Positions 1 to 29,368 are shown, counted from the stretch's first letter. The stretch: DNA of 32,000 nucleotides from Candidatus Woesearchaeota archaeon (GCA_964573185.1 CAZNIQ010000003.1:4595-36594), one strand, 5' to 3'. The notes: a model not told the origin generated them from the sequence alone. Made by a program: numbers and translations.

Positions 1-698
1 AGACTTTCCGTTAAAGGAACCTTATAAAGATCCAATAGGTAAGGATCATCTTGGAATCTTAAGAAATATGCAAAATCTTTATACTTATAAAATAGAGAAT
101 AGAAAGGCAAGGTTATAATAATTGTTGAAAGAATTACAAAAAGAAATTCTGATATATCTCTTTTTTTATGAAAAAAGAAATAAATAAATGTGAAAGCAAT
201 TAAAGAAAATAAAAACGTTGAGATATGCGTATAACCGATTAAAGAAAGAGTTAAGATATTGATTAATGGATTATTGATTAGAAGCAGGGGTATTAAACCT
301 GTAGAGAAAAATTGCGGAAAGTTCCCTTCAGGATTCAAAAGTTTTAATCTATAAAAGTTTAAATAGTAAAAGATGGTGATTATTAAAGCAAATTTCCAAT
401 CTGTGTACTTTTTGGCAATATGATAAGTAATTACCATCAAAATCAGATTTGAAAGAAAAAGAAAAACTTTTATATCAAATAATAAAGAAAGATAATAAAA
501 TAAAGGTGGATAATATAGAAACGTTGGATATCCCACATACCAAAAGTTGTCCCAGTAAAGATTTATATCCTCTTTTAATCTTTCGATTTTATATAAATGT
601 CCAAAAGCATCTCCTTCTGGAGAAAAATCAAATCTAAACAATAGAAGGAGATTAAGTAAAAATAAAATAAAATAAGGAAAATACTTTCTTATCTCCAC
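1..698 (-). CDS. Polytopic membrane protein, N-terminal part only (gene runs off the window start); possibly a GT-C-type glycosyltransferase
   Basis: Absent from the supplied ORF track because it has no stop in the window. Hand translation of the minus strand from GTG at 698 stays open down to base 3: VEIRKYFPYFILFLLNLLLLFRFDFSPEGDAFGHLYKIERLKEDINLYWDNFWYVGYPTFLYYPPLFYYLSLLFDIKVFLFLSNLILMVITYHIAKK... It shows repeated hydrophobic helices and an acidic first loop after TM1. The GTG overlaps the stop of the upstream GT2 gene. The start codon is uncertain; the first in-frame ATG is at 437. Confidence 0.5.
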   Translation of the reverse strand, partial: MEIRKYFPYFILFLLNLLLLFRFDFSPEGDAFGHLYKIERLKEDINLYWDNFWYVGYPTFLYYPPLFYYLSLLFDIKVFLFLSNLILMVITYHIAKKYTDWKFALIITIFYYLNFYRLKLLNPEGNFPQFFSTGLIPLLLINNPLINILTLSLIGYTHISTFLFSLIAFTFIYFFFHKKRDISEFLFVILSTIIITLPFYSLFYKYKDFAYFLRFQDDPYLLDLYKVPLTES

Positions 699-5127: not shown

Positions 5128-6876
5128 TTATTTTTTCTTTTTTAATTCTTTATATTTTTGGTAAAGCTTGTATCCAATTTCCTTTTCTTTTTCTTTAATC
5201 TCAGAACATGCTTGTAAAACAATTTCTTTTGCTTCCTCAATAGTTTTTTCTTTTAAATAAACTTTTCCCTTCTCAATTAAATGCAAATTCTTCTCTAACT
5301 TTCTAGTTAACTCCACAGAGAAAATTTCAGGAATATATTGCTCTAAAATTTCTATAACAACTCTCCCCAAAGTAGTTATCTGTATAGCCTTCCTTCCTTT
5401 TATATACCTTCTTTTATAGAGAATATAAACTATCTGAGGTCTTGTAGCTTTTGTACCTAATTCCAATTCCTCTAATTTTTTAACTAAAGAAGCAGGAGAG
5501 TATCTTGGTGGAGGTTCAGTATACCTTTTCTCTATTTTTGGATATCCTCTCAAAATTTCACCTTCTTTAAATAAAATACTTTCAAACTCTTTAGAATAAA
5601 TTTTCCAATAAACTCTTATCCATTCACTTTCTAGAAGCCTGTCTTTGAATTTATATTCATAAATAAAGGGTATATCATTGCTTCTAGCAAGAACTTTTAT
5701 ATAATAATAGTAAGAGTGATCCAAAAATGTTGCAATAAATCTTCTAACAACTAAATCGTAAATTAAGAATTCTTTTTTATTAAGATTCTTAGGAATTTCT
5801 CCTGTGGGATGAATCGCTGGATGAACGTCATCTTTAGGTCCATTATTTGGAATTAATTTTTCTTTTCTCAAAGTTATAGCAATATATTCTTTATATAAGT
5901 TTATTTTACTTAAACTTTCAAAAATTTCTCTAAAATTTATTGTAAATGGCAATTTTTGAGATTCAGTTCTAGGATATGAAATATATCCTTGTTCGTAAAG
6001 CTTCTGGGCAATATCTAATGTTCTTTTAGGAGAAATTCTATACAATTTCCATGCATCTTGCTGAAGATCTGATAAATTATAAGGATAGGGAGGATTTAAT
6101 ATTACTTTCTTTTTAATTACTTTTTCTATTTTTAAATAATTATTACATCTATTTTTTAATTCCAAAGCTTGTTTATAATCTTTAATTATATTTGGATACA
6201 TAAATTTAGCCTTTGTTTGGAAAAATAATAAATAATATGGTTCTGGCTTAAAGCTTTCTATCTCTCTTTCTCTTTCGTAAACTAATTTTAGTGTAGGTCC
6301 TTGTACTCTTCCTATACTTAACACCACTTTTTTAACATAGTGTCTGATAGCTTTTGTTAATGCTCTAGAGAGATTTATTCCATAAATCCAATCAACGATA
6401 TGCCTTGTTTCTCCAGCTAAAGCAAAAGATAAATTCATCTCTTTCAAATTATAGAAAGCATAAAGAATGTCTTTTCTAGTAATTGCAGAAAAAATCATCC
6501 TATAAGCATTATTTCTATTAAAGATAAACCTTAATATATTATATCCAATTAATTCTCCTTCTATATCATAATCGGTTGCAATAATTATTTTATTTTCATT
6601 TCTAAATCTCTTTAGAATATTTATAAATTTCTTTTTAACATAAATTTTATCCTCTATATAAGCAGGAACCCATTTATAATTAAAAGAAGGATAATACATA
6701 TCTTTTCTTAAATCAGATAAAGTAAAAAGGTGTCCTAAAGCAGAAGTAATGTAAACTTTTTCATTATTCAATTTAAAATAAATTAGAGGTGGAAATTTTG
6801 AAAGAACTTTAAACTTATTAGATAAAAAACTAGCAATCTTCCTTGCAACAGAAGGTTTTTCTGCAATTATAAGCAT
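5128..6876 (-). CDS. topA: DNA topoisomerase type IA (Topo I/III-like core, no C-terminal zinc fingers)
   Basis: 582 aa. Motifs seen: Toprim MLIIAEKPSVARKIA, acidic cluster TDYDIEGELIG, active-site tyrosine GYISYPRTES, HPAIHPTG, and TEPPPRYSPASLV...GTKATRPQI. Confidence 0.9.
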   Translation of the reverse strand: MLIIAEKPSVARKIASFLSNKFKVLSKFPPLIYFKLNNEKVYITSALGHLFTLSDLRKDMYYPSFNYKWVPAYIEDKIYVKKKFINILKRFRNENKIIIATDYDIEGELIGYNILRFIFNRNNAYRMIFSAITRKDILYAFYNLKEMNLSFALAGETRHIVDWIYGINLSRALTKAIRHYVKKVVLSIGRVQGPTLKLVYEREREIESFKPEPYYLLFFQTKAKFMYPNIIKDYKQALELKNRCNNYLKIEKVIKKKVILNPPYPYNLSDLQQDAWKLYRISPKRTLDIAQKLYEQGYISYPRTESQKLPFTINFREIFESLSKINLYKEYIAITLRKEKLIPNNGPKDDVHPAIHPTGEIPKNLNKKEFLIYDLVVRRFIATFLDHSYYYYIKVLARSNDIPFIYEYKFKDRLLESEWIRVYWKIYSKEFESILFKEGEILRGYPKIEKRYTEPPPRYSPASLVKKLEELELGTKATRPQIVYILYKRRYIKGRKAIQITTLGRVVIEILEQYIPEIFSVELTRKLEKNLHLIEKGKVYLKEKTIEEAKEIVLQACSEIKEKEKEIGYKLYQKYKELKKKK

Positions 6877-6885
6877 TAAAATTTT
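6876..6885 (+). promoter_or_regulatory. Putative TATA box for the + strand sRNA locus
   Basis: ttaaaatttt is centred about 25 nt upstream of the GUGAUGA C box at 6906. Confidence 0.35.
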
Positions 6886-6893
6886 CTAGAGAA

Positions 6894-6905
6894 TAAAAAT
6901 TTATA
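6894..6905 (-). promoter_or_regulatory. Putative TATA box for the topoisomerase gene
   Basis: The minus strand reads tataaattttta, centred about 23 nt upstream of the ATG at 6876. This implies a leaderless or near-leaderless transcript. Confidence 0.35.
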
Positions 6906-7004
6906 GTGATGAAGACCCAGGACTCTGAGACCCCGGTAACCCCGAAGGGCCAGAGATCCCGTAAAGGGTTACGATGAAGGCCCGGTCCTTATCCGGGGTA
7001 TCTA
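6906..7004 (+). ncRNA. GC-rich structured RNA: C box, 12-nt guide and D' box module followed by a multi-stem GC-rich element and a degenerate C'-like GAUGA
   Basis: GUGAUGA (6906-6912), then the 12-nt AGACCCAGGACU, then CUGA (6925-6928). After that come complementary segments ACCCCGG (6930-6936)/CCGGGGU (6993-6999) and UAACCC (6937-6942)/GGGUUA (6966-6971), and CGAUGA at 6972-6977. GC content is far above the local background. No matching D box follows within 12 nt of the C'-like box. Confidence 0.4.
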
Positions 7005-7051
7005 TGATGAGCGGTGAGGAACTGATTACTGATGATGGTGATCCGGACTGA
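7005..7051 (+). ncRNA. C/D box sRNA (2'-O-methylation guide)
   Basis: The architecture is canonical for archaea. C box UGAUGA (7005-7010), 11-nt guide GCGGUGAGGAA, D' CUGA (7022-7025), 4-nt spacer UUAC, C' UGAUGA (7030-7035), 12-nt guide UGGUGAUCCGGA, D CUGA (7048-7051). Confidence 0.75.
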
Positions 7052-7541
7052 TCTTGAATTTCACATCTATTTTATTTTTCTTTAATTCTAAAATAGCAAC
7101 GCTTTTAGTTACTATTGGATATTCTCCGGAAGCAACACCCGTAGCTGTTCCAGGGTTTACATAGTAGATCCCTTGGTAATATGTAAACAGAGGTAAATGT
7201 GTATGTCCAAAGATTACTATCTTTGCATTTTTTGCTTTAGCATATTCATATATTTGATCTAAATCCCCCCTAGGATAGACTTCATCTGAGTGAAATACAA
7301 ATATCCTCCATCCTTCTATATCTAAAACCAATTCTCTTGGCAGATCTAAGTAATCTGTATTTCCTTGTACAGCTTTGACTTCGGCAATCGTTTCTAACTC
7401 TTCAAGGACTTTTGGATCATTTATATCTCCAGTATGGATGATTAAATCTACCTTTTCTTTTTCAAACCATTCTAAGAATTCCTCCGGTATTTTGCTAGCT
7501 CTCCTTGGTATATGAGTATCCCCTATTAATCCTAATTTCAT
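7026..7541 (-). CDS. Metallophosphoesterase, YfcE/MJ0936 family
   Basis: Motifs MKLGLIGDTHIP, HTGDIND and GHTHLP. The track start (TTG at 7580) adds 13 non-conserved residues, so the ATG at 7541 is preferred. The last 8 codons (ISPDHHHQ) are antisense to the C/D sRNA. Confidence 0.85.
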   Translation of the reverse strand: MKLGLIGDTHIPRRASKIPEEFLEWFEKEKVDLIIHTGDINDPKVLEELETIAEVKAVQGNTDYLDLPRELVLDIEGWRIFVFHSDEVYPRGDLDQIYEYAKAKNAKIVIFGHTHLPLFTYYQGIYYVNPGTATGVASGEYPIVTKSVAILELKKNKIDVKFKISPDHHHQ

Positions 7542-7797
7542 AAATACAATATATGCCGTTACATCCTTCAATTTTTCCAATCAAATCTTCTATAATCTTC
7601 GTATCCCCCTCAATTTTTAGCATTTCTTCAAGTTCTGACTCTTTAATAATAATAGAAAGCATGCGATATTCTTTATTCTTTCTTGTAAAGAAAAAGTAAG
7701 ATAGTGTACGTTTATCATTTCTAATGTTGTAACTGTATGAGTATTCTATGATTTCATATCCCTTGCTTTTTAAAGATTTGAGAAAAAGCTTAAGCAT
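7495..7797 (-). CDS. Small hypothetical protein (about 100 aa), paralog of the upstream gene
   Basis: The ATG at 7797 overlaps the stop of 7790..8095 (ATGCTTAA). It shares the pattern L-x-x-L-K-x-x-G-[WY]...SYN...GKI-x-C with its neighbour. Its 3' end overlaps the phosphoesterase start by 47 nt. Confidence 0.5.
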   Translation of the reverse strand: MLKLFLKSLKSKGYEIIEYSYSYNIRNDKRTLSYFFFTRKNKEYRMLSIIIKESELEEMLKIEGDTKIIEDLIGKIEGCNGIYCIYEIRINRGYSYTKES

Positions 7798-29213: not shown

Positions 29214-29262
29214 TCAGCGAGGTCTCCAGTCATCAGTGTTCAGCGTTTAACAAAGTCATCAT
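29214..29262 (-). ncRNA. C/D box sRNA (2'-O-methylation guide)
   Basis: The minus strand reads AUGAUGA (C), CUUUGUUAAACG (12 nt), CUGA (D'), ACAC, UGAUGA (C'), CUGGAGACCUCG (12 nt), CUGA (D). The spacing is canonical for archaea. Confidence 0.8.
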
Positions 29263-29293: not shown

Positions 29294-29368
29294 GGGCCCG
29301 TAGCTCAGCTTGGATAGAGCGCCGGGCTCCTAACCCGGAGGTCCCGGGTTCAAATCCCGGCGGGCCCG
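29294..29368 (+). tRNA. tRNA-Arg (anticodon CCU), CCA not encoded
   Basis: The cloverleaf folds by hand. Acceptor stem GGGCCCG/CGGGCCC, D arm GCTC/GAGC, anticodon stem CCGGG/CCCGG with loop CTCCTAA, T arm CCGGG-TTCAAAT-CCCGG, and discriminator G. It is very GC-rich against an AT-rich background. Confidence 0.95.

Follow-up and report, generated by a model that had tools for sequence, protein, structure and literature searches.

Positions 6906 to 7051 of the window (the whole 32,000-nt stretch of DNA analyzed here, part of contig C3 of its assembly) probably constitute one transcription unit that encodes a composite guide RNA of a thermophilic nanoarchaeon, a reading that we hold at a probability of about 60%. 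Read 5' to 3' on the plus strand, to which coordinates refer unless stated otherwise, the unit would start with half of a C/D RNA, composed of box C, box D', and a 12-nt guide between them, continue with an H/ACA-type hairpin lacking an ACA box, and end, without interruption, in a canonical double-guide C/D sRNA. Archaeal C/D and H/ACA guide RNAs are normally separate, and RNAs that combine the two are a textbook feature of eukaryotic Cajal-body RNAs. The published archaeal combination is a simple tandem, whereas here most of the H/ACA hairpins encoded in a 0.59-Mb genome are fused to C/D modules, and three of them are nested.

The host genome (0.59 Mb, 30% GC, 37 contigs, 89% complete) is placed in the same order as Nanoarchaeum equitans; its own rRNA genes are absent from the assembly, and a pattern scan detected ∼50 canonical C/D sRNAs genome-wide. 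GC-rich RNAs contrast with this AT-rich background (a tRNA-Arg reaches 71% GC), and GC content at the locus is 56% over positions 6900 to 6999 and 56 to 61% across the GC-rich part, in agreement with the high-GC island that an earlier interpretation made from the DNA alone (hereafter, the sequence-only reading) had recognized in this ∼30% GC genome. All of the boxes and complementary segments listed in that reading are present in the sequence. At the Rfam gathering threshold, the sole match was tRNA.

The 5' half-unit begins with box C (GUGAUGA, 6906 to 6912), the probable 5' end of the transcript, in an AUAUA-GUGAUGA context that is identical in a paralog on contig C13 (loci are named here after their contigs). 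It continues with a 12-nt guide, g1 (AGACCCAGGACU, 6913 to 6924), and with a box D' recognized by its sequence pattern (CUGA, 6925 to 6928), exactly as the sequence-only reading had it. The pattern RTGATGA-N12-CTGA occurs twice in the window compared with 0.02 expected occurrences, and none of 100 shuffled sequences reached two. The guide g1 is identical to the D' guide of the C13 locus at 7 of 12 positions, a likeness suggesting that the 5' part of the focal unit may be a diverged duplicate of a C13-type copy. The C13 D' guide matches 16S rRNA (AUUACUGGGCC) over 11 bp; for g1, no run of at least 9 bp was found in the 16S and 23S rRNAs of five relatives or in the 39 tRNAs of the host. Box C at 6906 would have a D partner only by sharing box D at 7048 or box D' at 7022, and a terminal stem is absent.

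The segment that follows, from 6930 to 6999, is, judging from its architecture, an archaeal H/ACA-type guide hairpin without an ACA box and does not represent a new fold. Its 7-bp lower stem is formed by ACCCCGG (6930 to 6936) and CCGGGGU (6993 to 6999), a complementary pair already pointed out in the sequence-only reading. Above it lie the two strands of a pocket, 10 nt on the 5' side (6937 to 6946) and 9 nt on the 3' side (6984 to 6992), a 5-bp upper stem (6947 to 6951 paired with 6979 to 6983), and a K-turn module (6952 to 6978). In this module, G6953-A6954 faces the bulge G6973-A6974-U6975 together with G6976-A6977, and A6952 faces A6978; the canonical stem of the K-turn is the small hairpin 6955 to 6972 (CCC-GUAAA-GGG with the pair G6955-C6972). 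The tandem GA pairs, G6976.A6954 and A6977.G6953, are located 6 positions above the pocket, and the GA stem spans 8 positions, the same as in hairpin 1 of the N. equitans H/ACA sRNA and within the 8 to 9 seen in the paralogs. Only Watson-Crick pairs make up the three helices (15 in all), and the K-turn retains its GA pairs. The segments GGG (6947 to 6949) and CCC (6958 to 6960) are present as described earlier, and so is CGAUGA (6972 to 6977), although the latter is not the degenerate C' box it had been taken for but the bulged strand of the hairpin's own K-turn; as had been noted, no CUGA follows it at guide distance.

The hairpin thus displays a lower stem, an internal loop within the range of 5 to 11 nt per strand, an upper stem, and a K-turn above the upper stem, and departs from an H/ACA guide in the last feature, the ACA box, in place of which AUC is found at 7000 to 7002, 16 nt from the top of the pocket. 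This AUC is part of a linker, AUCU (7000 to 7003), that occupies the position of the ACA in the paralogs and contains U7001 and C7002, potential pairing partners of A6930 and G6929. In typical single-hairpin guides, the ACA is dispensable if the unpaired UN is at most 17 nt from the ACA position (PMC7075261), and the distance of 16 nt in the focal hairpin is inside this published limit. A covariance model seeded with a stand-alone hairpin of the same genome alone (C1; model R2) aligns the focal hairpin at 11.8 bits, and the Rfam H/ACA family HgcE/Pab105 gives a weak match of 12 bits that covers exactly 6930 to 6999 in a search with E values up to 10. The census model R3 yields 62.5 bits, with the focal hairpin itself included in its seed.

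The same fold recurs in paralogs across the genome. R1, a covariance model derived solely from the focal locus, detected a full-length paralog on contig C13 with a genome-wide E value of 4e-4. The C13 unit reads GUGAUGA, 12 nt, CUGA, CG, hairpin, ACA, 9 nt, AUGAUGA, 12 nt, CUGA, and UUUUU, and its minimum free energy (MFE) structure is the H/ACA fold (z −2.5). The R2 model, in turn, recovers both N. equitans H/ACA hairpins along with those of C12, C13, and the focal unit. In an alignment of five hairpins, fitted to the structure and composed of paralogs with different guides, 97% of the cells pair and 20 of the 21 pairs change on both sides, compared with 33 to 52% pairing when the partners are slid by 1 to 3 columns. 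This covariation supports a common architecture and not the conservation of the focal locus itself. The focal hairpin, C1, C12, C10, and both hairpins of the N. equitans H/ACA sRNA are all laid out as "upper stem, N, GA, small hairpin, GAU, GA, N, upper stem"; the K-turn bulge of C13 is UGU, and the design of the K-turn module is the same in five K-turn hairpins of the genome.

A census by model R3 and a descriptor scan yielded ∼11 H/ACA-type hairpins, 7 of which are fused to C/D modules with gaps of 0 to 12 nt. Four hairpins stand alone (C1, C12, C4:8451, and C23); three are followed by a C/D sRNA after 0 to 5 nt (C2, C4:17198, and C35); one follows a C/D sRNA after 2 nt (C10); and three, namely, C13, C17, and the focal hairpin, are nested between a D' box and a C or C' box. 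The two nested paralogs have the order C-guide-D'-hairpin-C'-guide-D with a true ACA. The ACA is located 0 to 2 nt past the lower stem in all ten other hairpins, and the focal hairpin alone lacks it. The focal unit differs from C13 and C17 in two further respects: the spacer between the hairpin and the next box C is 4 nt compared with 11 to 12 nt, and the hairpin is followed by a complete C/D sRNA rather than by a single C'-guide-D half.

The thermodynamics of the focal hairpin are less telling. The MFE structure of 6930 to 6999, at −27.6 kcal/mol, is not the H/ACA fold (−26.2 kcal/mol) but a three-way junction composed of P1 (ACCCCG/CGGGGU), P2 (GUAACCC/GGGUUAC, a perfect 7-bp helix), and P3 (GAUGA/UUAUC). 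The MFE of −27.6 kcal/mol has a z score of −0.97, and 34 of 200 shuffled sequences fold as well; among the five hairpins folded, the focal one is the weakest, the paralogs ranging from −38 to −41 kcal/mol (z −3.0 to −6.4), and its stems are the shortest of the family. Because the folding energy is not significant, the case for the hairpin rests on its architecture and its paralogs. A reading in which the region adopts the three-way junction and belongs to another L7Ae-binding or unknown RNA class would have the MFE and the perfect P2 helix in its favor, but the junction is more stable than the H/ACA fold by a mere 1.4 kcal/mol, it would destroy the K-turn motif held in common with the N. equitans H/ACA RNA, and no matching Rfam family exists. 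Moreover, P2 and P3 are absent from C13 and from every other paralog, all of which have the H/ACA shape as their MFE structure. We rejected the three-way-junction fold on account of these missing helices and regard the reading as barely credible. The complementarity of UAACCC (6937 to 6942) and GGGUUA (6966 to 6971), which the sequence-only reading had included among its nested helices, is accordingly real, but it belongs to the competing fold and is not a conserved helix. Of the folding and covariation analyses which that reading had proposed, energy minimization gave the junction and paralog covariation backs the H/ACA fold, whereas related genomes provided no orthologous locus and hence no ortholog covariation. 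Its suggestion of a different class of L7Ae-binding RNA found no support, the insertion being an H/ACA-type hairpin by all appearances; its suggestion of a helical insertion that creates an internal K-turn fits both the geometry and the C13 and C17 units, although the H/ACA nature of the insertion had been missed.

The loss of the ACA box, the shortest helices of the family with an energy z score that is not significant, the 7 of 12 positions that g1 has in common with the C13 D' guide in the absence of a good target, and the 4-nt spacer before box C instead of 11 to 12 nt could all be taken as signs of decay. Positions 6906 to 7003 would then be a degenerating duplicate of a C13-type unit that now serves only as a promoter and 5' leader for the C/D sRNA. 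However, both boxes match the consensus with an exact 12-nt spacing, the stem pairs and GA pairs are undamaged, and ∼60% GC has been retained in a reduced genome of 30% GC, where neutral sequence should drift to AT. Decay to a relic therefore appears quite improbable to us.

The focal unit appears to be transcribed from a single promoter. A box A or TATA-like hexamer, TTAAAA (6876 to 6881), is situated 30 nt upstream of G6906; the sequence-only reading had placed a TATA-like box about 25 nt upstream of it. By itself, such a hexamer is weak evidence at 30% GC; box-A-like hexamers, however, precede the focal unit, C13, C2, C12, C23, and C4b at distances of 26 to 31 nt, as they do most units of the genome, with the spacing at −30 in the focal unit and −31 in its C13 paralog. 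In N. equitans, sRNA and tRNA promoters carry TTTAAA 26 nt ahead of the start (PMC3491384). No box-A-like hexamer fits between fused modules, including the interval between the focal hairpin and box C at 7004, and transcription is predicted to begin near G6906. On the 3' side, a T-rich tract (7068 to 7081) is a possible terminator, the first run of at least four T's beginning 19 nt past box D; in the C13, C2, and C10 units, T runs directly follow the last element.

The unit is flanked by two protein-coding genes on the minus strand. An archaeal DNA topoisomerase I gene (5128 to 6876; TIGR01057, 540 bits, model positions 1 to 585 of 618) is divergent from it. C/D sRNAs can mark split genes in N. 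equitans; this role was considered for the focal unit and rejected, the neighboring topoisomerase I gene being complete. The second gene encodes a YfcE-family phosphodiesterase (7026 to 7580), and its last 8 codons and stop codon are antisense to the C/D sRNA: the DNA for the tail ISPDHHHQ and the stop (7026 to 7051, minus strand) is the C' box, guide, and D box read in reverse complement. The sequence of this C-terminal tail is thus dictated by the sRNA.

The canonical double-guide C/D sRNA that the sequence-only reading had located directly downstream spans 7004 to 7051 and consists of box C (AUGAUGA, 7004 to 7010), the 11-nt guide g2 (7011 to 7021), box D' (CUGA, 7022 to 7025), a UUAC linker, box C' (UGAUGA, 7030 to 7035), the 12-nt guide g3 (7036 to 7047), and box D (CUGA, 7048 to 7051). 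The module is picked up by the genome-wide pattern scan; its matches to the archaeal C/D families of Rfam are below threshold, the best being sR2 with 24.7 bits. Guide g3 pairs over 10 bp (including 1 G-U) with the 3' end of N. equitans 16S rRNA and, by the rule of the fifth nucleotide from box D, points to G1530. The D' guide of Neq sR20 is directed at the same nucleotide, and Gm1530 has been found experimentally in N. equitans (PMC5389701). Among 21 genomes of the order, a g3-like guide was found only in the host and in N. equitans (sR20). The 16S Rfam alignments of four relatives from the neighboring family end with ...GCGGCUGGAUCUAGUU and not with GGAUCACCUCC; it looks as if these relatives have a 16S 3' end that is interrupted there or is missing the usual anti-Shine-Dalgarno tail, which agrees with their having no g3-like guide. 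Guide g2 pairs over 8 bp only, with 16S positions 1395 to 1402. Nop5 and fibrillarin assembled on the C/D modules would accordingly be predicted to use g3 for the methylation of 16S G1530 and perhaps g2 for that of a site near 16S position 1396.

Apart from a 5+5-bp match in a variable part of N. equitans 23S rRNA, the pocket of the hairpin was left with no canonical "UN" target in a scan of low power that relied on relatives' rRNAs and that yields only weak matches for the verified N. equitans RNA as well. The 3' pocket strand matches 23S rRNA (UAAGGACCGG) at 10 of 10 positions in four relatives, just before the helix-69 region, but no U follows, and we estimate the chance rate of such 10-mers at ∼0.26 per genome and orientation. 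Of the protein machinery, the host genome encodes Cbf5 (with DKCLD, TruB, and PUA domains), Nop10, and fibrillarin. Gar1 was not detected in the 89% complete genome by a model that also misses the Sulfolobus control. The Nop10 gene lies ∼1.1 kb from one of the tandems in which an H/ACA hairpin precedes a C/D sRNA (C4:17143-17251, minus strand, and C4:18381-18530, plus strand).

In the composite RNA, L7Ae would bind the K-turn of the hairpin and, in addition, a second, standard K-turn formed by D' (6925 to 6928) and C (7004 to 7010), whose canonical stem would be the base of the hairpin (G6929-C7002 and A6930-U7001, followed by the lower stem). These two pairs would extend the helix directly from CUGA and leave U7003-A7004-U7005 as a 3-nt bulge ahead of G7006-A7007, as in a standard C/D K-turn. 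This neat geometry comes from the short spacers and is not available in C13 and C17. The hairpin might recruit Cbf5-Nop10 without the ACA anchor, or it might mainly serve as a protein-bound structural spacer.

The single transcript could instead be a polycistronic precursor, much as the sequence-only reading had suggested with its dicistronic precursor, that is cut into the C/D sRNA 7004 to 7051, perhaps circularized, and an H/ACA-like hairpin RNA, the 5' C-guide-D' part being trimmed or left as a by-product. Precedents exist: N. equitans processes tRNA-sRNA dicistrons and circularizes C/D sRNAs (PMC3491384), and the H/ACA RNA Pab21 of Pyrococcus abyssi occurs in vivo in forms with and without its C/D part (PMC2377435); the module 7004 to 7051 is also complete on its own. 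Cutting is harder to reconcile with C13 and C17, in which box C and box D flank the hairpin and would be released as half-units without a partner box, and with the tandems, in which spacers of 0 to 5 nt between ACA and box C leave little room for a defined cut. In the focal unit, furthermore, D' and C would form a standard K-turn only in the uncut RNA. We consider the precursor doubtful, though far from negligible, and by analogy with Pab21-snoR9, full-length and cleaved forms of the composite guide RNA may both accumulate. The most far-reaching form of the composite reading, in which the intact RNA of ∼146 nt loads both machineries and the D'/C K-turn replaces the ACA anchor, would give three methylation guides and one pseudouridylation pocket in an independent archaeal counterpart of scaRNAs, with guide fusion as the usual organization of the lineage; this version seems unlikely.

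The tandem arrangement of H/ACA and C/D modules is already known from Pyrococcus, where the H/ACA motif Pab21 (Pf1) is located at the 5' end of a transcript annotated as the C/D RNA snoR9, RF00065 (PMC4652768, PMC2377435). Pab21-snoR9 resembles the hairpin-then-C/D part of the focal unit as well as the tandems C2, C4, and C35; the focal hairpin and its C/D sRNA, 4 nt apart, would likewise be carried on a single transcript. In contrast, Pab21 has an ANA box, which the focal hairpin lacks, the papers on Pab21-snoR9 mention no C-guide-D' unit upstream, and the Pab21 hairpin is not nested between D' and C. The RF00065 model did not match the focal locus even at E values up to 10.

A second relevant comparison is the N. 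equitans H/ACA sRNA, a 159-nt RNA with two hairpins between NEQ389 and NEQ392 that has been verified by RNA-seq (Randau 2012, PMC3491384). It has the same elements in the same order as the focal hairpin, namely, a lower stem, a pocket, an upper stem of 5 to 6 bp, and a K-turn of the form "GA, small hairpin, GAU, GA," with ∼16 nt from the pocket to the position of the 3' box, and the two are linked by covariance models, although without sequence-level orthology. The N. equitans RNA is nevertheless a stand-alone molecule whose two hairpins are each followed by ACA, whereas the focal RNA has one hairpin only, without ACA and with C/D boxes on either side. Structured inserts between D' and C' that form a K-turn rather than a K-loop are likewise found in the tRNA-Trp intron of Euryarchaeota and the tRNA-Met intron of N. 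equitans (CUGA-CCC-GAAA-GGG-GAUGA), but these are plain hairpins with neither a pocket nor a K-turn of their own, unlike the focal hairpin.

In overall topology, there is also a eukaryotic counterpart. The U85-type composite C/D-H/ACA scaRNA, said to have been described by Jady and Kiss in 2001, reportedly has the order box C, guide, D', H/ACA domain, C', guide, and D, an order matched by C13, C17, and the focal unit. scaRNAs differ in having two hairpins with H and ACA boxes, in carrying CAB boxes, and in targeting snRNAs within Cajal bodies. Common descent of eukaryotic scaRNAs and the focal composites is unlikely.

Searches for an orthologous locus in 20 other genomes of the order and 150 of the class came back empty: a BLASTN search with 6896 to 7060 against 40 relatives gave no match, the whole-locus model R1 recovered the host genome only among 21 genomes of the order, and the hairpin model R3 recovered only the host and N. 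equitans across the order and 150 genomes of the class. When metagenome contigs were searched with the neighboring topoisomerase as the anchor, one relative with 26% identity and no usable synteny emerged. A pattern scan for the nested architecture (C, N12, D', N55-85, C, N10-13, D) across all species genomes returned at least 80 loci, and among the matches listed, there was no archaeal or bacterial locus with an H/ACA-like insert. The scan also drew attention to a conserved C/D RNA at 8 loci in Methanoregula genomes, with two fixed guides, AACAAUGGGUCUG and CCCGUUGGAGCA, of which the second is complementary to the anticodon-loop sequence CUCCAA, and a variable two-hairpin insert of 55 to 68 nt between D' and C'. 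Presumably, this is the known tRNA-Trp intron guide RNA. Full-text searches of the literature found no report of a nested C/D-H/ACA RNA in archaea, and a 2021 review states that scaRNAs are absent from archaea (PMC7991803).

The genome can serve as a natural test system for several questions: whether one RNA and its L7Ae sites can be shared by two machineries, whether an internal K-turn can stand in for the ACA/PUA anchor, and whether fusions coordinate the modification of neighboring rRNA segments in extremely reduced cells. On the practical side, annotation pipelines that seek stand-alone sRNAs will miss or mis-split such fused units.

Several other loci display complementarity between guides and hairpins. 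In C13 (4331 to 4459, plus strand), the D guide GGGCGACG pairs over 8 nt with CGUCGCCC of its own hairpin, a length reached by none of 100 background guides, and in C17 (137 to 245, minus strand), the D guide CGGCGGA pairs over 7 nt with UCCGCCG of its own hairpin, a length reached by 4 of 100; both matches are significant. The corresponding match in the focal unit is 5 nt, which 36% of background guides reach, and is not significant. One strand of the C13 hairpin is also antisense over 10 nt to 16S rRNA (CGGGCGACGG) in 5 of 5 relatives. In C13 and C17, guide and pocket might be directed at the two strands of a single rRNA helix; alternatively, the RNA may be self-inhibitory. Similarly, the 5' pocket strand of the stand-alone hairpin C4:8451-8502 (plus strand; UACCGCUAUC) shows 10 nt of complementarity to the D' guides of two C/D sRNAs, C22:6522 and C30:3370, both guides being similar to the one that N. 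equitans directs at 16S position 28; the H/ACA hairpin and the two C/D guides may bind opposite strands of one 16S helix.

The C35 tandem (1 to 180, plus strand) has a further peculiarity: its H/ACA hairpin (67 to 119) is located between the arms of an inverted repeat of ∼29 nt, the 5' flank being the reverse complement of box C, the guide, and D' of the C/D sRNA 3' of the ACA. The repeat might fold into a long stem around the hairpin, or it could be the mark of a rearrangement at the end of the contig. Finally, the window contains another compact noncoding RNA island, in which a canonical C/D sRNA (29214 to 29262, minus strand) is separated by 31 nt from a divergent tRNA-Arg(CCU) gene (29294 to 29368, plus strand).
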